From contig CAVYIK010000003.1 in the NCBI GenBank assembly GCA_963768625.1, positions 390,715-454,714 of the forward strand: a stretch of 64,000 nt of DNA, given 5' to 3'. The notes below the pieces were generated by a model. It had not been told where the DNA came from and did not search any database. It saw nothing but the letters and a program-made list of their open reading frames with translations. The position numbers and the translations under genes were made by a program. The DNA is from an uncultured bacterium. GTDB taxonomy: Bacteria > Patescibacteriota > Minisyncoccia > UBA6257 > 2-01-FULL-56-20. Positions 3,469 through 37,033 of this stretch are shown one piece after another (the first letter of the stretch is position 1; each line of letters begins with the position of its first letter).

Positions 3469-5311
3469 TTGTGATCTCGCTCTTCTTTTCTCGCCTTTCT
3501 CGCGCCCGCGACGCAGCCGCAGACCTTAAGCCTGAACCAGCTTGTGGACAAAATAAACGCCGGGCAGGTGACGAAGATCGTCGTGAACGGCAACGATCTC
3601 GCGGTTACGCTCAAGGATGGGAGCACCGCGGCTTCCAAAAAGGAACGAGATCTGGCATTTCGGAGACGCTCAAAAATCTTGGCGTGAATCCGACAGCGCT
3701 CCAGAGCGTTGACCTTGAAGTGCAGGACCAGTCGGGCTGGCAGTTCTGGGCGGGATCTTCTGCTCCCTACGCTCCTTCCGCTCCTCGCGATCGGCGTCAT
3801 TTTCTGGTTCATGTTCCGGCAGGCGCGCACGGGCGTGAACCAGGCGTTCAATTTCGGCCGCTCCAACCTCCGCCTTTCCACTTTCAAGGACAAGGTGATG
3901 TTCAAGGACGTCGCGGGCCTCAAAGAAGCAAAGGAGGAACTGATCGAGGTCGTCGATTTCTTAAAAAATCCTAAAAAGTTCCTTGACTTGGGCGCGCGCA
4001 TCCCCCGCGGCATATTGCTCATGGGGCCTCCGGGAACCGGGAAAACGCTCGTCGCCCGCGCCGTCGCGGGCGAAAGCGGCGTCCCGTTCTTCTATATCTC
4101 CGCGTCGGAATTCGTGGAGATGTTCGTGGGCGTGGGCGCTTCGCGCACCCGCGACGCCTTCATGACGGCGAAGCGTGCCGCGCCCGCCATCCTTTTTATT
4201 GATGAGATCGACGCGGTCGGCCGCCAGCGCGGCGCAGGTCTGGGCGGCGGGAACGACGAACGGGAGCAAACACTGAACCAGATCCTCGTTGAAATGGACG
4301 GCTTTGACCGCGACACGCGCGTGATCGTGCTTGCGGCGACGAACCGCCCGGACATCCTGGACCCGGCGCTCCTCCGGCCCGGACGCTTTGACCGCCGCGT
4401 TATCCTTGACCTTCCCGACCTGAACGACCGCGAGGCGATCCTCAAGATCCACGCCGAAGGAAAAGTGCTCGAAAAGAACATTGATCTCCGCAAGGTCGCC
4501 ATCCGCACGCCCGGCTTCTCCGGCGCCGACCTTGCGAACCTTGATGAACGAAGCCGCCATCTATCGCCGCGCGGCGTCAGCAAAAAAGCGGTCGGGCAGG
4601 ACGACCTTTTTGAAGCGGCGGAGAAGGTGATCCTCGGGCCCGAGCGGAAGAGCCGCGTGATCTCACAGAAGGAGAAGGAGATCACGGCGTACCACGAAGG
4701 CGGGCACGCGCTTGTCGCGGCAGCGGTCAAGGACGCCGACCCGGTACAAAAAGTTTCCATCATCAGCCGCGGCTTCGCGGGCGGCTACACGATGAAACTC
4801 CCGACGGAGGACCAGCACCTAAAGACGCGCAAGCAGTTCCTCGCCGACCTCGCGATGATGATGGGCGGCTACGCTTCGGAGAAGCTCACGTTCGGCGATG
4901 TTTCAACGGGCGCCTCAAACGACCTTAAAGAGGCCTCCGAGCTTGCGCGGCGGCTCGTCACGAAATACGGCATGAGCGACCTCGGCCCGATCACCTTCGG
5001 CAAAAGCGAGGAGCTTATCTTCCTCGGCCGCGAGATCACGACCGAAAAGGATTATTCCGAAAAGGTGGCGGCGGAAATCGACGCGCAGGTGCACAATTTC
5101 CTTTCGCACGCCTACGACATCGCGGAAAAAATATTGAAGTCGCAGAAGCCGGCCCTCAAAAAGATCGCCGAGACCCTGATACAAAAGGAGACGCTGGAGC
5201 AGGAGGAGTTTTACGATCTTTTGAAGCCGTTCAAGATAAAGCCGATGCCGCGTAGCGCGCGGTGCCGCCGTGCAGCGGCCCGGCCGCGCCGGCGCAGGCC
5301 GCCTGCCCTAA
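3423..5311 (+). pseudogene. ftsH: ATP-dependent zinc metalloprotease FtsH, several frame changes
   Basis: Motifs present: N-terminal TM (MSNLTKNILWAIRALIVISLFF), Walker A GPPGTGKT, Walker [40 protein letters not shown] zinc site. The frame switches in the 3480-3720 region. A compensating indel pair garbles ADLANL-MNEAAI near 4540-4570. The annotated ORF reads through to 5565 only because the true stop frame is lost near 5250-5311. Confidence 0.85.
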
Positions 5312-6657: not shown

Positions 6658-6729
6658 GCGGGTATCGTATAATGGCATTACCTCAGCTTTCCAAGCTGAT
6701 GACAGGGGTTCGATTCTCCTTACCCGCTC
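6658..6729 (+). tRNA. tRNA-Gly (anticodon TCC)
   Basis: GCGGGTA acceptor paired with TACCCGC, anticodon stem TCAGC/GCTGA with loop TTTCCAA, T arm AGGGG-TTCGATT-CTCCT. Close to bacterial Gly-UCC tRNAs. Confidence 0.85.
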
Positions 6730-6734
6730 AGCAA

Positions 6735-6804
6735 CAGCCAGAGGCAAGTAGCTTCGAAGAGAGTTCTCAGAAGGGCTCTCTTCGAAGCTACTTGCCTCTG
6801 GCTG
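6735..6804 (+). terminator. 29-bp perfect inverted repeat (hairpin) directly after tRNA-Gly
   Basis: CAGCCAGAGGCAAGTAGCTTCGAAGAGAG (6735-6763), a 12-nt loop, then the exact reverse complement (6776-6804), followed by TTTGGTTGGTTGG. Confidence 0.5.
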
Positions 6805-14115: not shown

Positions 14116-14220
14116 GTGAAACAATTTTGTAAAACAGTAGGAAAATCAAGCTTATCGGGTTATTGGAATTAAAAATAAATTATTAAAAAATGATTAAAAA
14201 TGATGCGGCAACGCTATATA

Positions 14221-14366
14221 ATCCGGCAATCCGGCAAGAAAACATCAATCCGGCAATTGCCGGATTTATAATTGCCGTTTTGCCGGATATCCGGCAAACA
14301 TTTAATGAATTTTTAATATACAGACTCTGCACAGGCTACCCACAGAACCCCTCGATTGCCGGATTC
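14221..14366. repeat. cluster of ATCCGGCAA / TTGCCGGAT half-sites (direct and palindromic)
   Basis: Tandem ATCCGGCAATCCGGCAA at 14221-14237, perfect 20-bp palindrome AATCCGGCAATTGCCGGATT at 14247-14266, ATTGCCG at 14271, perfect 18-bp palindrome TTGCCGGATATCCGGCAA at 14280-14297 and ATTGCCGGAT at 14355-14364. A further CCGGCAA-6 nt-TTGCCGG lies at 13955-13974 inside yraN. Confidence 0.75.
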
Positions 14367-14387
14367 ATTTTGTTAGAATACAACTCT

Positions 14388-14720
14388 ATGGATGCCAAAC
14401 AGATTGAGGAGTACAAAAAGAAGCTTGAGAAGGAACGGCTGCTGCTTCTTGCGGAGATAAAGCAGGATCAAAAACCGGTCGACTTCGGGCATGACGTTGA
14501 CCACTTTGACGAGGAAACCGACGAGGCGGAAGAGATGAGCAATCAGCTTGCGGCTGCCCAGGGTCTTAAGAACCGCCTGGACGAGATCGACGTCGCCCTC
14601 GGGAAGATCTATTCAGGGAAATACGGGCTCTGTGAAAAATGCGGTGGGAAGATAGAGGCGGCTATTCTTGACATAGACCCGGAGTCCCGCTTGTGTAAGC
14701 GTTGCAAATTGGGAAAATAA
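14388..14720 (+). CDS. DksA/TraR family C4-type zinc-finger protein (110 aa)
   Basis: Coiled-coil N-terminus, then KIYSGKYGLCEKCGGKIEAAILDIDPESRLCKRC (C-x2-C...C-x2-C). The tracked ORF start at 14190 runs through the repeat array, so the ATG at 14388 is preferred. Confidence 0.75.
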   Translation: MDAKQIEEYKKKLEKERLLLLAEIKQDQKPVDFGHDVDHFDEETDEAEEMSNQLAAAQGLKNRLDEIDVALGKIYSGKYGLCEKCGGKIEAAILDIDPESRLCKRCKLGK

Positions 14721-27833: not shown

Positions 27834-28001
27834 ATGAAATACTCCGAAAAGCTCGTACAAGACTGCCGGGAGTACTATATGAAACGCGGCGTCGCCATCT
27901 CCGGGGAAACGGCGGAGCAATTTCTTGATACCCTTGCAGATCTTTGGGATTGCCTGGCTAAATCGCTAAAACGGAAGTCCAGCTCTCAGTCTAAGTCCTA
28001 A
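27834..28001 (+). CDS. possible small ORF (55 aa)
   Basis: MKYSEKLVQDCREYYMKRGVAISGETAEQFLDTLADLWDCLAKSLKRKSSSQSKS, found by manual translation. No motif recognised. Confidence 0.25.
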   Translation: MKYSEKLVQDCREYYMKRGVAISGETAEQFLDTLADLWDCLAKSLKRKSSSQSKS

Positions 28002-28148
28002 AATCGCATTTGTTCGAATCCTGGCCTGTGCACAGACTTGAGCATCCGTTCGAGGGAGCGGGATGCCTCAAAATATAAATGAGTTTTTGAACGTCGTATT
28101 AGGACAATCCGACTTCACAAAACTCTGAAGATGGCATAGGATAAAGCC

Positions 28149-29531
28149 ATGGAAAAATTCCCGACGCAACCGGGTAACGAAAGGGAGAAATCCGAGGGAT
28201 CGGTTGAGCACCCTGCGCTCCGTGAAAAATCTAACACTGAGCTTTTTGCGATCCGACTCATGGAAGATGAATTAAGGTCGTATGAAAAGAATTGGGAAGT
28301 CGGTGGGACGCTTGGAGCTGGAGAGAAAAGAAACATAGGCACAATGAGACAAACCCTCCAAGAGGGCGACTACACCCTTGTCTTGGGCCAACTTTTCTCT
28401 GAAAAGGGAGCACTCTTGGAGAATAAAGAAAATCCTGATTCCAAGTTTAATGCCGACGCCAGAGTTAGAGACATTGATCGGATCATCAAGACTTTGGGAT
28501 ACCAAGAATTTCCCGAAGCCAAAAAAGTTACAGAGCAGGACGTTGCGATATATCTCGATTCAATGGCGAGGGAGTTGGCCGACTTTGGGCGAAATCATGG
28601 CGGAGATATAAAATATATGAAAAAGATGATGCAGGAATCGGATTCATATCTGCAGTTATCGAACGAGATACTGAACCCATCCGGAGAAAATGGAGAAATG
28701 AGCGAAGAAGCTCGGAAGAAAGTTTATGAGGTGCTTCAGCAAAAGGAAATAGGATTCCGTTCGCGCAGAGCCGGAAGCGAGTATGCCACAATGGCCAATG
28801 GCGAGGGTAATTTGGAAGCATATCGAAATCCGTCTCCGCAAACTGAAATCCAGATTAAAGATCTTAAAAAAGAAATCGAGCAGGCGCTGAGAGTGGGGGC
28901 GATGGCAAATTTATTTGAGAAAAGCCCAGAAGGCGGCGCTGGGAAAGAAGCTAAAGAAGCTGAAGAGCGTGAGCGCAAACTACAGCAACTTCGCTCTGAA
29001 ATGCAGAGAACCGCACAGCCCCTCGATCGTCCTCAATCTGAAGAAGAGAGATTGAGAGAATCTAGGAATAAAATTGATAGTATGACTATCAATGCTGGAG
29101 TAAAAAAACAAGAAAAAAAAGAGGAGCTGCCAGGAAATCTCGGTAAGATAAAGCATGTTTTAAATAATTACGTTGAACAGTCGACGGGCCGTCCATCAAA
29201 CCAAGTGGACAGTATGACCCCCGCTGTTGAGGGTTTTAAAATGGCCTACCCGGAAGAAAATGATTGCTTATCCAGAATAAATGAGGTCGCCAAAATCTAT
29301 GGAACCAGAGTGCAGGAAGAATTAAAAACAGACGCAAGAAACGAAGGAGGGTATGCGAAGAACAGGGCGCTTGAATATATTGTGAGTTCCGTTCTGACCC
29401 AACAGGAAAGAGCAGCTTTTGATAGGGTTGCGAAGCAAGAAGAACAAAGACAATACACTCCGGGTATGCGTATGGTTGGGATCGTTCCTTTAAAAACATC
29501 CTTGCGAGATCTTTTTGAGGCCATAGCTTAA
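28149..29531 (+). CDS. hypothetical highly charged protein, 460 aa
   Basis: Intact ORF, rich in E/K/R coiled-coil-like segments. No recognisable domain. It is convergent with the second recombinase, with a 4-nt gap. Confidence 0.55.
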   Translation: MEKFPTQPGNEREKSEGSVEHPALREKSNTELFAIRLMEDELRSYEKNWEVGGTLGAGEKRNIGTMRQTLQEGDYTLVLGQLFSEKGALLENKENPDSKFNADARVRDIDRIIKTLGYQEFPEAKKVTEQDVAIYLDSMARELADFGRNHGGDIKYMKKMMQESDSYLQLSNEILNPSGENGEMSEEARKKVYEVLQQKEIGFRSRRAGSEYATMANGEGNLEAYRNPSPQTEIQIKDLKKEIEQALRVGAMANLFEKSPEGGAGKEAKEAEERERKLQQLRSEMQRTAQPLDRPQSEEERLRESRNKIDSMTINAGVKKQEKKEELPGNLGKIKHVLNNYVEQSTGRPSNQVDSMTPAVEGFKMAYPEENDCLSRINEVAKIYGTRVQEELKTDARNEGGYAKNRALEYIVSSVLTQQERAAFDRVAKQEEQRQYTPGMRMVGIVPLKTSLRDLFEAIA

Positions 29532-29535
29532 TCGA

Positions 29536-30876
29536 TTATTTTTCTATCCGCACCACCTTGCTTGCCAATATGAGCTTACTTCTGAGGCACGTTAGAAATT
29601 CACGCTTCTCAATCATCGTCCCTTCGCGCAGCGCATATGCAGCATAGTCCTTAAGTTTGATATGCTTTTGCTTTGATTTTGATGCTTCTTTCGTCCCGAA
29701 AAAATTCTTTTGGAATTTGTTGATCCTCTCGACTTCATCCTCAAACTTTTGCCGCATATGCATCTCACTGAGGTCAAGCTGGTCAATAATTTTCACAAGT
29801 TGCTCGATAAGGTCCTCTTCTCGTATATATCCGCATTTGCAGTTTTTATCCCGCGATCGCGTACAACCGTAATAGACATAGCGGTGGGTATTACCGTTTT
29901 TCTGTTCTTTGAATTTCTCGTCAGCAGTAACGCCCGATCCGCAGAGGCCGCAGGTGATGAGCTTCGTGAATGCGAACTCCTTCAGTTCCGATCTCACGAT
30001 CTTGTCACGCCTCAATTGTTCGATGGCTTTTTCAAATAATTCTTTCGTGATGAGCGGCTCATGTTTGCCCTGATACCAATTGCCGCTCTTTTCTGGATAT
30101 TCGAAGATGCCGTAATAAAATGGATTTTGAAGGAGGAGATAGATATTGCTCAGCGAAAAATCCTTACCTGTTCTCGTCTTGAATTTCAGGTCTTGCTTGA
30201 GCCATCGGAAGATTTTTCGGCCGGACCATTGTTCATTAGCGACCTTCTCAAAAATCTGTTTCACGATATGCCCTCGTTCGGGATCTATAATTACTTGGCA
30301 CTTACGATCACGATTCTTTTCGTTCAAATATCCCGTTGGTGCAACGCCAGGTCGCAGTCCCATCTCACATCTCGCACGTAGCCCACGTTTCACATTCTCG
30401 ACTTTATTATCATTTTCGAGCTTCGCCTGCGAACAAAGTATCATCAGCATGAACTTCTCGTTCGGAGAGTCCGCAAACTTCTGATTAAACGTTCGTATTT
30501 CAAGAAGTAGTTTTTGATCCATAAGATCGACGAGTGCACCAAGGTCGCCCGCGTTCCGCGATAGCCGATCCGGCGCCCACGTAAGGATGCCCGTAAACTT
30601 GCCGGAGCGAATATCAAGGACGATCTCGTTGAAAACTTCTCTCTGTCCGACCGCTTTCGCCGAATGACTCTCTCGCTTGATGTCCGTAATTTCCAACCTA
30701 TCCCGATCCGCGATCTTCAGCATCTCCTTGATCTGTGAATCGATGGAAAGAACCTGCTGTTCCTCCGACTCAGTGCTTTTTCTTGCGTAGAGGCAATACC
30801 TCGTTTTCACTTCGACCTTTGCCGTTTGGATGCCCGATTGACTCGAACCCCTTCCTACGATTTGTGCGTTCTCCAT
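29536..30876 (-). CDS. second serine recombinase (recombinase-family protein), 446 aa
   Basis: Catalytic N-terminus YCLYARKSTESEEQQVLSIDSQ...APDRLSRN, recombinase domain, and zinc ribbon CGLCGSGVTADEKF...YYGCTRSRDKNCKC. Confidence 0.85.
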   Translation of the reverse strand: MENAQIVGRGSSQSGIQTAKVEVKTRYCLYARKSTESEEQQVLSIDSQIKEMLKIADRDRLEITDIKRESHSAKAVGQREVFNEIVLDIRSGKFTGILTWAPDRLSRNAGDLGALVDLMDQKLLLEIRTFNQKFADSPNEKFMLMILCSQAKLENDNKVENVKRGLRARCEMGLRPGVAPTGYLNEKNRDRKCQVIIDPERGHIVKQIFEKVANEQWSGRKIFRWLKQDLKFKTRTGKDFSLSNIYLLLQNPFYYGIFEYPEKSGNWYQGKHEPLITKELFEKAIEQLRRDKIVRSELKEFAFTKLITCGLCGSGVTADEKFKEQKNGNTHRYVYYGCTRSRDKNCKCGYIREEDLIEQLVKIIDQLDLSEMHMRQKFEDEVERINKFQKNFFGTKEASKSKQKHIKLKDYAAYALREGTMIEKREFLTCLRSKLILASKVVRIEK

Positions 30877-30948
30877 ACCTCAATGGATGACGCACTGGCC
30901 GGGGAAGTCCAGGCCCTCATTACAAGGTCACAAAGAGGCCGAAGAGGC

Positions 30949-31206
30949 AAATGAGACAGTGACTTATCCTGTGTCTCATTCTGACTATGCTCAACAGCCC
31001 TTGGTTTTCCTATATAAAATGCCACCGGGACCCAAATGAGACACATTTCTGAAGTACCCGTTTTTGTGTCTCATTTGTCTCATTTGCTTTTTGGGACGGT
31101 GGGAATGGAACACAAACGGGACGCCCTGTTGTGTCCCATTTGTTCCGTTTTCGCCCTAAATGTTACACTCAGCAAAAGGGCAAAGTAGTGTAACATTTGT
31201 AACATT
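30949..31206. repeat. four inverted-repeat modules AAATG-NNN-ACAC / GTGT-NNN-CATT(TGT-NNN-CATT) with a module-specific central triplet
   Basis: Module 0 at 30949-30980, module 1 at 31034-31086, module 2 at 31103-31150, module 3 at 31158-31206. Details are in the findings. Confidence 0.8.
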
Positions 31207-31363
31207 CAGACCCGCCCGAGACACCTCGATTGTCGGATCGCTCCGGCCCCTCAAAAGACCCCATGAAACCTATCGTCGAAATTTGCGAGACCGGGTAAGG
31301 GCCCTGTTTCGTTGACTTAGTTTTTGGGCTGCATTAGGGTGGGAAGGTAGTTTGGAGGGTCAA

Positions 31364-31594
31364 ATGGGCTCTAGCTCCTTGGATGTTCAATGCTTGAGCT
31401 GCGAACGAGCTCGCTCTAGTTACAGTGGAAAACCGTTCGTACCTCCGGGTGGATCGTGTAACGATCTGTTCTGGACTTGTCATTGCGGCCAGATGTGGTT
31501 TCAGGGAAACAACTATTATCACCTTTGGCAGCCAGTGACTCCCGAGCAAGCCGATGCATTTCGAAGGGATTTGAACTCCCCTTCGGATTATTAA
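31364..31594 (+). CDS. small cysteine-rich (zinc-ribbon-like) protein, 76 aa
   Basis: GGAGG lies 5 nt upstream of the ATG at 31364. The protein has CLSC...C...CHC cysteines and is followed by a terminator. Confidence 0.5.
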   Translation: MGSSSLDVQCLSCERARSSYSGKPFVPPGGSCNDLFWTCHCGQMWFQGNNYYHLWQPVTPEQADAFRRDLNSPSDY

Positions 31595-31617
31595 TCCATA
31601 TCCATCACGGGGAGACC

Positions 31618-31645
31618 GGCCGCTTAGCGATAGGCGGCCTTTTTA
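31618..31645 (+). terminator. rho-independent terminator
   Basis: Stem GGCCGC/GCGGCC with a 10-nt loop, followed by TTTTTATT. Confidence 0.6.
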
Positions 31646-31683
31646 TTCAAAATCGTTCGAACATCGTCCAGGCCTGTGCACCA

Positions 31684-32376
31684 TTATCGAAGCGCTCTCA
31701 TTTCCGCCTCGGCCACACGCTTAATCCCATCAACTAGTCCTCCTACCTCTTTCTCGTCAGGGACAGGCTTTTTGACAAGATAGCTTTCTTTGTCTTGCAG
31801 GATAGGTTTCAAGAACTTTTTAATCTCGACGAGCTTGCAGAAGTGCTCGACGGAGACGTTGTAGCTTTCGATAAAGTCATCCACGACCTCATAATGGTTT
31901 GAGATCTCCTTCATTGTTTTCGGATCAAACAGCGGCACACCATATAGTTCTTGGCTAATCTCTGCAGTGGCCTCCCGGTAGGCATAAAAGTCTCTTGATT
32001 GCGCGGAGAGCATGGATACGTATTTCTTAAGACGCTCAAACCTCTCTGTTCTTTTTTCCTTGGAGAGTGTTTCGTCGGCATCTACGACCACCCTCTCCCA
32101 ATGATGGTTCAGAAACAAGTAGCAGGCATAGGTACGCAATTTTTCAGTTTCAATTTCCCTAACCCATAGAGCGTTCGCCCATCGGTAAAGCAGTACGCGA
32201 CGCGTGTATTCCTCCCATGCCTTCCTATCGTCGAAACGGAGGATAGCTTGCCGTTCCGATTCTGAAATCAAAGACTTCTCGCCTGCCACCTCTCTTTGAA
32301 AATCAGGGACGATGAGCTTGTACCGTTCTTCAGCGGAGAGCGTCGGCGCTAGCTTGATGAGATCTGGTGTTTGCAT
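31684..32376 (-). CDS. hypothetical protein, 230 aa
   Basis: Intact ORF in an operon with the 126-aa gene (3-nt gap). No recognised domain. Confidence 0.5.
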   Translation of the reverse strand: MQTPDLIKLAPTLSAEERYKLIVPDFQREVAGEKSLISESERQAILRFDDRKAWEEYTRRVLLYRWANALWVREIETEKLRTYACYLFLNHHWERVVVDADETLSKEKRTERFERLKKYVSMLSAQSRDFYAYREATAEISQELYGVPLFDPKTMKEISNHYEVVDDFIESYNVSVEHFCKLVEIKKFLKPILQDKESYLVKKPVPDEKEVGGLVDGIKRVAEAEMRALR

Positions 32377-32378
32377 AG

Positions 32379-32759
32379 TTACTTCTTTATCCTCACTTTT
32401 CGCTCCAGGATGATGCTGTTCACGAGATCCATCTTCTCGTCCAATTCCCCAACCTCAAGGGCCTTGAGGGCTATATTCGCCAAATAACCGATACAATTGG
32501 CCTTCTGGTGGGTCATGGGTTCGGTCCGGATACGGTTAATGGTGTCTTCAATCAGGGCAAGTACTCCCTCAATGTTCCTCACCGGAATGACCGTCAGAGC
32601 TCCCGCCTCCTTCCTGGGCTTCGGGGATAGGGCGCCCTTCCTGATAGCCGCCTCCCGCTGCTCCTTGGCGTCGGGATTGTGGATGAAGCAGTAATCCGCC
32701 CCGGTCATGGGGTTTGCTTTGCAGGGACTGCCGTCTGGCTTTATATATTGGCAATTCAT
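32379..32759 (-). CDS. hypothetical protein with an N-terminal Cys/His knuckle, 126 aa
   Basis: MNCQYIKPDGSPCKANPMTGADYCFIHNP (C-x10-C-x10-C-x2-H). It is the first gene inside the right end of the element. Confidence 0.5.
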   Translation of the reverse strand: MNCQYIKPDGSPCKANPMTGADYCFIHNPDAKEQREAAIRKGALSPKPRKEAGALTVIPVRNIEGVLALIEDTINRIRTEPMTHQKANCIGYLANIALKALEVGELDEKMDLVNSIILERKVRIKK

Positions 32760-34365: not shown

Positions 34366-35076
34366 CTAGTTCTTCGCGAACGGATTGTGCGCGCCAATGA
34401 CCTCGAAATGCACGTGGCAACCGGTCGCATCGCCGGTCTCGCCCATAAGCCCGATCTCCTGCCCCTGCTTCACGTAACTGCCGATCTGCACCAATGCTTT
34501 TTCGAGGTGAGCATAGCGGGTAAGGACATCATCGCCGAAGGGATGCTCTATGAGCACAAAATTCCCATAGCCATCGTTCCAGCCGTCTGTTACGTTCGTG
34601 ATATTCGGGTCGGGGACGATAAGCCCTTCTGCTGCAGCGACGACGGGCGTGCCGCAGTGGTTCGCGATATCAACCGCATTGTAATTATGTAAAATTCCCC
34701 AGTCGTAACCCTTGGCGGGCATGATAAACTTACTGTTCAGGTTCGGCAGTGCGGTGGGAACGTCGAGGTCGGGGGCTTGGATGGCGTTTGGTGCCCCCGG
34801 ATCTTTCATTGTGGCTCTATCCGAAGAAACTGCGTCCGCCAAGCCGACGCTCGGATATCCCAATGCCCCGCTGTCCGATCCGAGAAGAGCACCCTCCGTC
34901 ATGCTGCCGCCGAGCGCTGCCGACTGGGCGAGTTCCGCCCCTTCGGCGCTTGAAATGAGCGGGGGAGGACTATCCGGGCCCCCAAGGACTCCGCGTACCT
35001 CGGTAAAACCCGTTTTCCTAAAGAATAAAGAGCCCAGAAAAAGGCACCCCATAACCAAAAAAACGGCCACAGTCAA
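34366..35076 (-). CDS. M23 family metallopeptidase (membrane anchored)
   Basis: N-terminal TM helix, then DGYGNFVLIEHPFG...TRYAHL...GETGDATGCHVHFEV. Confidence 0.8.
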   Translation of the reverse strand: MTVAVFLVMGCLFLGSLFFRKTGFTEVRGVLGGPDSPPPLISSAEGAELAQSAALGGSMTEGALLGSDSGALGYPSVGLADAVSSDRATMKDPGAPNAIQAPDLDVPTALPNLNSKFIMPAKGYDWGILHNYNAVDIANHCGTPVVAAAEGLIVPDPNITNVTDGWNDGYGNFVLIEHPFGDDVLTRYAHLEKALVQIGSYVKQGQEIGLMGETGDATGCHVHFEVIGAHNPFAKN

Positions 35077-35135
35077 TGGTTTATTCTTCCCATATAATTG
35101 TCGTACTATCGTACTAATAAGAGCAGCTTATCACA

Positions 35136-37033
35136 ATGGCCTCAAAACATCAAATAAGGCAGGTTTTTCCGCTCAACCCAGCCCAAAAAGCGGCAGCCGA
35201 AGCCCCCATTACTCCTTTATTAATAGTGGCGGGAGCCGGAACCGGCAAAACAAGGACCCTCACGCGCCGCATCGTTCACCTTATAGAGACCGGCATGCCG
35301 CCGGAAGGATATGCGCCATAACCTTCACGAACAAGGCGGCGCAGGAAATGAGGAACCGCGTGGCGAACCCGGAACCCTTTATCGGCACCTTCCATTCGCT
35401 CGGGGCAAGAATATTCCGGAAGGAATGCCGCGCATTCGGCCGGAAGCCGAATTTCGTGATTTTTGATGACCATGATTCCTTTGAGCTTGTTAAAAAAATC
35501 ATTAAAGAACTGCTTGACGATCTCGGCAACGGGAAAAAAAAAAAAGTACGCCGGCGTTCTTCGCTCAGAAAATTTCCGAGATAAAAATATTGTTGGCGGA
35601 GGCGCTCGAAAACGCCGAAGGACTCGCCGAGAGAAAAGCGCTATAGCAAGGAAGTTTTCCAAAAATACGAAGCGGCGCTCATGCAGAGAACAATGCGTTT
35701 GATTTTGACGACCTCATTGAAAAGCCGGTCGCGCTCTTCAAAAAAGATCCCGCAGTCCTCGAGAAATATCAGGCGAAGTTCGACGCCTCCTCGTGGACGA
35801 ATATCAGGACATCAATCCGAAACAATACGAGCTCGTAAAGCTCCTCGCGGGAGGCCATCGGAATTTGAGCGTCGTAGGGGATGACGAACAAACGATCTAC
35901 AGCTGGCGGTATGCGGACATCCGCACCTTCTTGGATTTTGACAAAGAATTGGCCCGGGGCGAAAATTTATTTTCTTGAAGAGAATTATCGCTCAACCGGG
36001 AATATCATCCGCGCTGCGCAGGCGGTCGCAGGAAATAACCGCTACCGCACGCCGAAAACATTATGGACGAAAAATCCGGAAGGAGAAGCCATTTCGCTCT
36101 TTGAAGCGTGGGGCGAGAACGAGGAAGCGGAATGGATCGCGGAGGAGATCGCGGAAGATAAACTCGCGCGACGCAAGGCCGAGATCGCTATCCTCTATCG
36201 CACGAATGCGCAGTCGCGCGCGATCGAACAGGCGCTCATCCGCCGCGACATTCCCTACCAGATCTTCGGCGGCCTGAAATTCTATGAACGGCGCGAAGTG
36301 AAGGATGCTGTCGCCGCGCTGCGCTGGGCATCGAACGACCGCGACGAGATCGCGCGGGAGCGGCTCGAAAAAAATCTCTCAAAGCGGAAATTTGCGGCGT
36401 TCAAGGGGAAAGATCATGCCGACGCGAAGCATCCCAAGCCCGATCGATATTATCAAGATTTTCCTTGAAACGTTTGGTTATTTTGACTATCTCGAAGGAA
36501 AATTTTCTGAACGCCGACGAGCGAGAGGAGAACATCGCCGAGCTCATCGATTTCGCGTCTGGATTTGAAAATTTGCCCGATTTTCTTGAGAAAATATGCG
36601 CTTCTCCAGGCGACGACGACGATTGGCCGACAAACCGCAGACGCCGAGAAGAAAGCGGGGCGGAAAGACAAACGCAAGTGAACCTGATGACGATCCATCT
36701 TGCGAAAGGGCTTGAATTCGAAAAAGTGTTCATCGCGGGCGTCTGCGAAGGGCTCCTGCCGCATATCCGCTCGATTGACAACGAGCGTCGATCGAAGAAG
36801 AGCGGCGGCTCATGTATGTCGCGATGACGCGCGCGAAGGAAAAACTGCACGTGAGCTTTTACGGCATGCCGTCGCGGTTCATCGCGGAGATCCCGGAAGA
36901 TTGCATCAAGCTCATCGTCATGGATGGGACGGCGGATGAGGCAGCGGACGAGACAGAGAGGGGGAGAACGGCCGCCAAACGCAGGCCATTTTCCGAAAGC
37001 GACGACTTCGAGGAAAATGTGATAGACATTTGA
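35136..37033 (+). pseudogene. uvrD: UvrD/PcrA-type ATP-dependent DNA helicase, at least 7 frame changes
   Basis: Motifs are spread over many frames: AGAGTGKTRTL (Walker A), [88 protein letters not shown], and VNLMTIHLAKGLEFEKVFIAGVCEGLLPH. Confidence 0.85.

Follow-up and report, generated by a model that had tools for sequence, protein, structure and literature searches.

An array of conserved 9-bp word sites between a large serine recombinase gene and a tRNA-like element end in an uncultured Patescibacteriota bacterium

A 64-kb stretch of contig CAVYIK010000003.1 from an uncultured bacterium of the Patescibacteriota, which we refer to as the window, contains a gene for a large serine recombinase (LSR) preceded by an array of short repeat modules. 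The gene (29536..30876, minus strand) encodes a protein of 446 amino acids that matches the Resolvase, Recombinase and Zn_ribbon_recom families of Pfam. Between its start codon and a boundary that resembles the 3' end of a tRNA gene lies a non-coding arm of ~425 bp (30877-31302), and this arm holds all of the modules. The modules are a real, strongly conserved and widespread cis-element of LSR-driven mobile elements. This cis-element is apparently undescribed, and full-text literature searches returned no description of these repeats or of this recombinase lineage. We see in it a variant of the repeated binding-site arrays that are known from recombinase/attachment (att) regions.

We numbered the modules 0 to 3 and read them on the minus strand of the window, which is the recombinase-sense strand. 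Module 1 (31034-31086) carries a GAG word and is laid out as AATGAGACA-AATGAGACAC, a 21-nt loop and then GTGTCTCATTT; it includes a perfect 13-nt inverted repeat (31033-31045 / 31065-31077) and a second TGTCTCATT at 31076. Module 3 (31158-31207) carries a GTT word in the order AATGTTACA-AATGTTACAC, a 19-nt loop and GTGTAACATTT, with a perfect 12-nt inverted repeat (31158-31169 / 31187-31198) and a second TGTAACATT at 31198. In both of these modules the second right-arm copy is shifted by 9 nt. Module 2 (31103-31150) follows the same plan with a GGR word (AACGGAACA-AATGGGACAC, a loop, then GTGTTCCATT), and its three copies, found as AATGGAACA at 31104, TGTCCCATT at 31132 and TGTTCCGTT at 31141, are slightly different (GGAAC, GGGAC and CGGAAC). 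Module 0 (30949-30980) combines a single AATGAGACA(C) site of the GAG word with an inverted TGTCTCATT across a 13-nt spacer and has no tandem copy; its strings, AAATGAGACAG at 30949-30959 and GTGTCTCATT at 30971-30980, form a plain 9-nt inverted repeat.

The four modules are more than a product of chance. We scanned for an exact 9-nt inverted repeat with an 8-30 nt spacer and a tandem copy after the 3' arm; within the 64-kb window this structure occurs at modules 1 and 3 only, and it occurs in 0 of the 40 dinucleotide-preserving shuffles that served as a control. The word 9-mers are absent from the rest of the window, save for one lone AATGAGACA at 28343. A first-pass annotation of this DNA had quoted the module strings correctly, and its plan of inverted arms followed by a tandem copy holds; the constant core that it proposed, AATG-NNN-CAC, gives way on comparison to the frame AAW-NNN-ACA (filled by GAG, GGR and GTT). 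It had also placed four modules on one template with mirrored arms. Modules 1-3 do share a template, whereas module 0 departs from it, lacking the tandem copy and ending its left arm in G, and the mirroring is perfect in modules 1 and 3 but not in module 2, whose copies are not identical.

According to the cross-locus comparison, the basic unit is a non-palindromic 9-bp word in the frame AAW-NNN-ACA. It is arranged as two head-to-tail copies with a 9-bp period and an optional third copy, which is inverted and lies 10-21 bp away, and on the recombinase-sense strand a module reads as word, word plus C, loop and inverted copy. The words in the window are GTT, GGR and GAG (the last of these twice); CGG, TAG, GTG, GGC, CTG, CAG and GTA are found at other loci, with at least nine words outside the window. 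Copies within one module share the word: a matching inverted copy accompanies 8 of 9 GTT, 4 of 5 GTG and 3 of 3 CGGAA tandem pairs. The loops are long (18-21 nt) and have a conserved sequence of their own, and a TATAAA-like box directly follows the tandem pair in 31 of 116 units, with TAnnnA present in many more. Among loci fetched without motif bias, the tandem copy is found in almost all modules. A downstream inverted copy (within 60 nt) is absent from 67 of 166 tandem modules, some of which have an inverted copy upstream instead. These short-period non-palindromic repeats occur both direct and inverted; some loci are symmetric, with two direct and two inverted copies, and others carry the word three or four times in tandem or lack inverted copies altogether (L003, L067, L257). 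Arrays of several words recur in L006, L231, L265, L286, L302, L310 and L217, mostly with GAG last, and the word type of module 2 is also present in the arrays of L006, L231, L217, L302 and L310.

One of these loci is unusual in its layout. Positions 2200-2700 of L257 contain five repeat units of ~88-140 nt, each with a different tandem word (TAG/CGG, GAG, GTA/GTT, CTG and TAG/CAG, by unit). An identical sequence of ~65 nt follows each tandem pair, terminator-like hairpins lie between the units, and inverted word copies are lacking. To judge by its sequence, the region resembles an array of cassettes, each presenting its word sites within an unchanging frame.

Relatives of the recombinase are numerous, with more than 8000 homologues at E <= 1e-20, mostly 60-70% identical, and those with a named organism almost always come from a metagenome-assembled genome of the Patescibacteria/candidate phyla radiation (CPR). 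Most members of the family lack the modules, including the next-closest relatives (72-75% identity), in which the upstream intergenic region measures 80-170 bp. The three closest relatives (86-89% identity) lie in unrelated gene contexts and have the same upstream region, modules and words. We aligned the window with three related loci, L001, L003 and L005, which had been fetched by protein and not by motif. The arm and the LSR gene form the sole block common to the four loci, the recombinase is the only protein-coding gene conserved along with the modules, and blastn homology to the three relatives runs from 31302 to ~29541, ending at the recombinase stop codon. Invariant columns make up 88 of 100 word-site positions versus 73 of 161 other positions (88% vs 45%; Fisher p ~1e-12); the loops and inter-module spacers diverge freely among the four loci, and the tandem copy is as conserved as the paired copy. 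The word copies of module 1 are identical in these three relatives and in L070, L079 and L228, where the GAG word stands unchanged beside recombinases ~60% identical to that of the window and the surrounding DNA is unalignable. In the latter three loci module 0 has kept its right-hand site, and its left-hand site is degenerate. Judged from these alignments, the word sites are under purifying selection at the level of sequence. Co-variation of the central triplets among homologous recombinase loci had been suggested as a check in the first-pass annotation; within orthologous modules the words are invariant.

The composition of the array does change. Modules that are absent from the window are present in its relatives (a TAG-word module in L001, L003 and L005, and a CGG-word module in L003), and copy numbers differ as well, with three tandem GAG copies in L003 and a single GTT copy in L005, which indicates that the array gains and loses units. 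At 31207-31213 of the window, deletion of the TAG module joins two word frames (CTGAAT|AGACAC... and ...AGAAT|GTTACAC); the deletion therefore occurred in the constant AAT part of two sites.

Other conserved blocks accompany the modules within the arm. Just upstream of the ATG is a leader, CTGGACTTCCCCGGCCAGTGCGTCATCCATTGAGGT (30877..30912, minus strand), which is family-wide (L006, L007, L008, L011, L070) and kept in module-less relatives; homology to arm-diverged copies starts at 30912. Between modules 0 and 1 there is an invariant TAAAATGC block (31015..31022, plus strand) with a -10-like hexamer, and GCATTTTA is invariant in the four-locus alignment. The sole sigma-70-like match that a promoter scan found in the region is a weak one on the plus strand, TCAACA-18-TAAAAT, and the consensus scan of the region gave no convincing promoter for the recombinase; a promoter function of the TAAAATGC block is putative. 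Between the element end and the first module lies a conserved GTCTCGG(G/T)C block (31214..31225, GGTGTCTCGGGC on the minus strand), which has the consensus GCGTCTCGGTCGGG in alignment A2 and is kept in L001, L003 and L005. Farther out, a conserved CATGGGGTCTTTTGAGG block (31249..31265, minus strand) is the equivalent of the TATAAGGGYTTTT block of the widespread unit described below.

The outer boundary of the arm is formed by a tRNA-3'-end-like fragment (31282..31302, plus strand), which consists of a T-loop-like GCGAGA, then CCGGG, then TAAGGGC. Conservation among the window, L001, L003 and L005 starts at GCCCTTACCCGGTCTCG and stops exactly at the end of this fragment, and the L159/L253 homology breakpoint is located there too. 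Over their first 25 columns, 35 aligned units match in geometry the reverse complement of a tRNA 3' end, TGG-C-7 nt-5 nt-TCTNGAA, corresponding to CCA, discriminator, 7-nt acceptor, 5-nt T-stem and 7-nt T-loop; GGTCT.G.A is invariant and the acceptor sequences are variable. Only the 3' side is tRNA-like: the complementary strand of the T-stem is mostly not maintained, and ARAGORN detected no whole tRNA at the unit in the window and 28 loci. Because conservation between loci begins exactly at the tRNA-like segment, 31282-31302 is probably the attachment junction, and the element would have the T-loop region of a tRNA gene as its target. The first-pass annotation had bounded the region by a gene for a small zinc protein (31364) and linked the modules to that 76-aa protein; the conserved block ends before the gene, at 31302, which leaves the link without support.

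The other end of the element is probably at 28011..28066 (plus strand), where a tRNA-3'-end fragment (28011-28032, TGTTCGAATCCTGGCCTGTGCA) is followed by a segment that we call block X (28030-28066). L005 has a counterpart of block X at 3497-3530 (94% identity), directly beside the tRNA-like start of the following arm, and in L003 tRNA-like 3' ends adjoin block X at two places. A cargo open reading frame (ORF) of 460 amino acids (28149..29531, plus strand) occupies the interval from block X to the recombinase gene; no Pfam family matches it, and it lacks conservation among related elements. From these boundaries, the window element most likely measures ~3.3 kb (roughly 28.0-31.3 kb), running from block X through the cargo ORF and the recombinase gene to the arm, and it appears to form the outermost unit of an island built up by accretion. 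The window has a low-G+C island at ~14-32 kb as opposed to 55% G+C outside. The terminal 17-mer has a single copy in the window, a tRNA 5' half that would match is absent from it, none of its three tRNAs matches the tRNA fragments, and there are no word copies near block X at the other end (28.0-28.15 kb). In L005 and L228 two arm-plus-recombinase units stand in tandem, ~2.9-3.4 kb apart, which suggests repeated insertion at the same target, and in L295 and L301 two GAG modules lie ~3.1 and 1.8 kb apart. Beyond the tRNA fragment at 28011-28032, the minus strand of 27970-28010 reads GAGAGCTGGACTTCCG, which is the start of the family-wide recombinase leader, without a recombinase gene after it; a decayed neighbouring element, which now holds an AbiEi/AbiEii toxin-antitoxin pair, may have left this remnant.

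The location of the junction bears on the possibility that the modules are themselves substrates of the serine recombinase, either as extra att-like sites or as a module 0/1 pair that inverts or deletes a promoter-bearing segment of ~85 bp. With a size of 31-43 bp and outer inverted repeats, the modules do resemble serine-integrase att sites in size and symmetry; modules 0 and 1 share arms, with spacers that differ by 10 bp, and whole modules have been gained or lost between related arms, the breaks falling in the constant AAT frame (as with the TAG module absent from the window and the single GTT copy of L005). However, the element junction is at the tRNA-like end (31302, and the joint of block X and the tRNA fragment), with the modules internal to it and 75-350 bp away, 85 bp is very short for synapsis, and the module loops are poorly conserved and carry other motifs. 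The changes in copy number are explained equally well by replication slippage between 9-bp repeats. Moreover, the module 0-1 segment and all loops have one orientation in ten related arms (the window, L001/L002, L003/L004, two in L005, L265, L070, L079 and two in L228). We consider it very unlikely that the modules are recombined. The att-like sites proposed in the first-pass annotation are at odds with the homology breakpoints, which put the crossover at the T-loop-like 31282-31302, and the invertible promoter switch proposed there finds no support in the uniform orientation of the ten arms.

Outside the close relatives, the 19-mer AATGAGACAAATGAGACAY, a tandem GAG pair that is also part of module 1, is found at no fewer than 120 metagenome loci. 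The widespread unit has the order tRNA-3'-end-like segment, TATAAGGGYTTTT-like block, GCGTCTCGGTCGGG-like block, tandem pair, TATAAAAAGGG or TAYTTAAGGGTAT, and often an inverted copy. The distance from the T-loop-like motif to the module end is mostly 166-168 or 175-178 nt, and that to the tandem pair is mostly 59-107 bp, typically 86 or 96 bp. In the window, the stretch from 31306 down to 31140, ending with module 3, measures 167 nt and has the same block order as GAG units; module 3, although a GTT module, thus occupies the position of the GAG module of the widespread unit. In 34 long contigs word sites are restricted to a single place per element. Dispersed sites, of the DNA-uptake-sequence or stoperator-like kind, were rejected on these grounds, the words being found at that one place and nowhere else in the window or the long contigs.

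Genes flanking 122 GAG units are heterogeneous, and 65 of the 101 next genes are convergent, being oriented towards the module, which indicates that the constant partner of the module is the element end and not a particular gene. Clustering of the ORFs around the 122 units gave the recombinase as the sole recurrent neighbour (19 of 122 loci, in 16 of these 19 downstream on the same strand) and no integrase-like cluster. A conserved neighbouring regulator was rejected on the same clustering, in which the convergent downstream genes are mutually unrelated. In viral contigs a 16-mer matched 99 stretches, nearly all of them chance or coding matches, with real modules only in L105, L154 and L159.

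The same data speak to whether the modules are merely functionless duplications in decay. The number of modules does differ between close relatives, but site columns are 88% invariant versus 45% for spacers, an identical 19-mer architecture recurs at the 120 or more metagenome loci with flanks that are otherwise diverged, and spacing to the element end is conserved. Decay is strongly disfavoured by this conservation, and we give it next to no probability.

A different arrangement of the GAG word was seen in nine contigs (L193, L216, L237, L256, L263, L268, L272, L289 and L292), in which four tandem 9-mers, AAATGAGACA-ATGGAGACA-AATGAGACA-AATGAGACAC, are followed by a T-run. They have neither an inverted copy nor a recombinase, and their G+C content is higher by the look of the sequence, not by a measured figure. 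At least in L263, L272 and L289 a D-aminoacyl-tRNA-deacylase-like gene is located 360-500 nt downstream. The 9-mer may serve a different, chromosomal role in these contigs.

We tentatively propose, at somewhat less than an even chance, that the modules are clusters of sequence-specific protein-binding sites in double-stranded DNA, placed in the att-proximal non-coding arm and controlling the element end. The proposal starts from sites whose sequence conservation, architecture, fixed position beside the tRNA-like end and wide distribution were observed by sequence comparison; protein binding, the identity of the binder and the effect of binding would follow by inference. Double-stranded sites are favoured because the words are invariant, the unpaired tandem copy is conserved, the inverted copies are dispensable, and there is no consensus RNA structure or Rfam match. 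Also in their favour are the GAG word kept beside distant recombinases, the confinement of the sites to one place near the tRNA-like boundary, the heterogeneous neighbouring genes, the recombinase as commonest neighbour, and the TATAAA-like box after the tandem pair. A DNA-binding protein would bind the tandem pair cooperatively and bridge to the inverted copy. The first candidate for the binder is the recombinase itself, acting in cis or in trans, because it is the sole conserved protein in the compact elements, in which no other conserved protein was found (ORFs of <60 aa were not screened systematically); otherwise it would be another factor of the element or of the host, and a trans-acting factor or a small unrecognised protein is equally possible. 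Occupancy of the sites would control transcription that is initiated at the element end or reads through it, recombinase expression included, and may also hold the element end in a defined architecture. Different triplets would be different addresses for different cognate binders, and the arm of the window has three of them (GTT, GGR, and GAG twice). Of the earlier suggestion of recombinase or accessory-protein sites with distinct specificities, like a set of att-like sites, the evidence favours the first part, as an inference, and not the att-like part.

Several observations weigh against binding sites in double-stranded DNA. The presumed recombinase half-sites around the T-loop-like junction are, in our reading of the alignments, unlike the words. 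The arm is entirely absent beside close relatives of the recombinase (72-75% identity), which indicates that the recombinase can function without the modules. The word type does not track recombinase phylogeny, with GAG beside a 60%-identical and GTG beside a 64%-identical recombinase. There is no 10.5-bp periodicity in the spacing from the element end to the tandem pair, and L159, which is apparently circular (9.1 kb), has the unit without a recombinase gene. Finally, differences between well-matched arms are biased in their pairing. In those with a single internal mismatch, a G·U pair is kept on the recombinase-sense strand in 19 cases versus 6 on the opposite strand, with 8 non-pairing (binomial p ~0.015, counts tallied by hand from events that are not all independent, some being related by descent), and module 2 retains a G·U-compatible difference in at least three lineages (the window, L001, L005, L217 and L302).

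This bias and the wobble of module 2 are predicted by a hairpin on the recombinase-sense strand. The modules would then act as single-stranded structures on that strand (minus in the window), either as RNA, in the 5' leader of the recombinase mRNA or in a short non-coding RNA ending at the module, or as extruded or single-stranded DNA, with the tandem copy as an alternative register. Such hairpins would control translation, stability or termination, or be recognised as structures. A stem of 10-13 bp is possible in every module, words of every type are matched by their inverted copies in the proportions given above, and TTTT usually follows the inverted arm. The arm also folds better than shuffles on both strands (z -3.3 and -4.1); since both strands do so, folding energies cannot discriminate. 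On the other hand, orthologous stems are invariant and have no co-variation (their invariance being neutral as to compensatory change), and when all candidate partners are counted the wobble-type changes number 31 vs 21 (strand bias p = 0.21), with 51 non-pairing on both strands. The conserved tandem copy is unpaired and of no use to a simple hairpin, ~40% of tandem modules have no downstream partner, the long loops have their own conserved sequence, and neighbouring genes frequently converge on the module. RNAalifold gave no consensus structure on either strand, and Rfam gave no match at the modules (E <= 10 in 30000-32500, the gathering score for the whole window, and eight related loci). 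We consider single-stranded hairpins unlikely, though they deserve some weight. The tandem RNA hairpins with alternative 3' partners that had been suggested at first gain a little, at best, from the G·U bias, with the lack of a consensus structure and the invariant words opposed to them. The idea that the whole ~170-nt unit is a structured or tRNA-like RNA was rejected, RNAalifold finding almost no structure, ARAGORN no tRNA in 28 loci, and the T-stem complement being lost.

If the protein-site proposal is extended into a full address code, each triplet in the AAW...ACA frame would specify which partner may act on the element end; we regard this as improbable. Conceivable partners are a paralogue of the recombinase, a factor from a co-resident element, and a nucleic-acid strand pairing with the exposed tandem copy. 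If such a code exists, an arm with several words could be mobilised or silenced by several different elements, and LSRs would have a combinatorial, possibly structure- or pairing-based, layer of specificity.

The viral-contig locus L159 (an IMG/VR contig of 26 kb) contains an exact 9117-bp direct repeat, which suggests that a small, circular replicon of phage-like type was assembled as a concatemer. Its tRNA-like end and GAG unit lie ~100 nt ahead of an operon of eight genes, terminase-like and methylase genes among them, and it carries terminase-like, ParB-methylase and ribonucleotide-reductase genes. A unit in such a replicon is compatible with the words serving an excised circular element, as replication-origin iterons or as sites for packaging or partition, with the A+T-rich TATAAAAA as the unwinding region. 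Two direct and one inverted copy beside a TATA-like A+T-rich stretch resemble the specificity iterons of rolling-circle or other Rep-dependent replicons, and the words behave as incompatibility-type alleles. Nevertheless, no Rep, primase or partition genes were found in the 3.3-kb window element or its tandem relatives, there are only two direct copies with a period of 9 bp and not ~22 bp, several words in one array are unexpected for a single initiator, and the position is fixed to the attachment end and not to any replication gene. An origin or packaging function is, in our judgement, quite improbable. Iterons had been listed in the first-pass annotation as well; the copy arrangement is compatible with them, but the geometry is atypical and no Rep domain was found in the window element, whose cargo ORF has no match in Pfam.

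We compared the array with known systems. By analogy, it would work most like recombinase-adjacent accessory/operator arrays, ribbon-helix-helix operators and specificity iterons, although it departs from each of them as described below. In Tn3-type res regions, crossover site I and accessory sites II and III lie between the recombinase gene and its neighbour, and the system is autoregulating. The res sites of Tn3/gamma-delta are similar to the array in that several inverted-repeat sites with varied spacers lie directly upstream of a serine-recombinase gene near the recombination site, and in that the array plausibly combines gene regulation with end architecture. They differ in that the enzyme here is a large serine recombinase of 446 aa (with Recombinase and Zn-ribbon domains) and not a small resolvase or invertase that ends in a helix-turn-helix domain, the crossover is outside the array (31282-31302), and there are several words (three in the window, at least nine elsewhere) and no single half-site consensus. 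In addition, half-site polarity is reversed here (TGT inward) and tandem direct copies are a constant feature. The arm-type sites of lambda-like attP (P'1-P'2-P'3) likewise consist of tandem 9-10-bp direct repeats ~60-150 bp from a crossover that is located in the 3' part of a tRNA-like sequence, beside the integrase gene. In contrast to that system, the enzyme here is a serine and not a tyrosine recombinase and has no arm-binding domain, the repeats were found at one end only, an arm has several words, and close recombinase relatives are armless.

Ribbon-helix-helix operators (the omega heptads of pSM19035 and the met-boxes of MetJ) share with the array short, non-palindromic, contiguous repeats with a 7-9-bp period, direct and inverted, of which at least two adjacent copies appear to be needed; the array differs from them in its third copy 10-21 bp away and in its location at an element end and not at an operon promoter. 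Specificity iterons of geminiviruses, circoviruses and rolling-circle replicons are matched to their cognate Rep. They are similar in having one inverted and two direct copies by a TATA-like box and word alleles in a constant frame, whereas here the element is bacterial, no Rep gene was found, there is no nonanucleotide hairpin, and an array has several words. Integron attC sites, too, are imperfect palindromes with constant outer parts and module-specific, mirrored inner parts, and they are associated with heterogeneous cargo. However, attC sites are folded single strands in which the sequence drifts and pairing is kept, while here the sequence is invariant and an unpaired tandem copy is conserved; moreover, the enzyme is a serine recombinase whose crossover takes place at another site. 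Mimicry of an anticodon loop by the U-NNN-A frame, GTCTC as a type IIS restriction site, DnaA boxes and IHF sites were also weighed and set aside for want of support.

The value of large serine recombinases as tools of genome engineering comes from the view that they need only short, simple att sites of 40-50 bp, with no accessory DNA. Here a very abundant recombinase lineage, apparently of small-genome bacteria of the CPR/Patescibacteria type, is repeatedly accompanied by a conserved, modular, word-coded array, typically ~60-105 bp from a tRNA-like end. Should the array act on expression or directionality, LSRs would have a new layer of control, and orthogonal parts could be drawn from it; should something else bind it, it would point to a shared regulatory language of mobile elements in poorly understood bacteria. 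The signature of a tRNA-like end, a GTCTCGG block and a tandem word can serve to find the ends of these elements in metagenomes.

Several further features were observed in the window and in related loci. The LOOT RNA (RF03000) was matched with 97 bits at L246 1771-1890 (minus strand) and with 77 bits at L224 1243-1367. In L246 it lies ~40 nt past the 3' end of a recombinase gene fragment of the window family, and the window itself has no LOOT match. A second array of repeat sites, unrelated to the modules, is present near the left edge of the low-G+C island, where dense ATCCGGCAA / TTGCCGGAT 9-10-mers, direct and inverted, occupy 14200-14300 around the start of an ORF (14190-14720). The C-terminal part of this ORF reads by eye, without a domain search, as a CxxC...CxxC zinc-finger motif. 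A perfect 19-20-nt hairpin (6746-6795) directly follows a tRNA-Gly gene (6658-6729). Finally, a UvrD-like helicase is split into two ORFs, with N-terminal domains in one and C-terminal domains in the other (34712-35584 and 35881-36468) and ~300 bp between them, which may be due to a frameshift, a pseudogene or an insertion.

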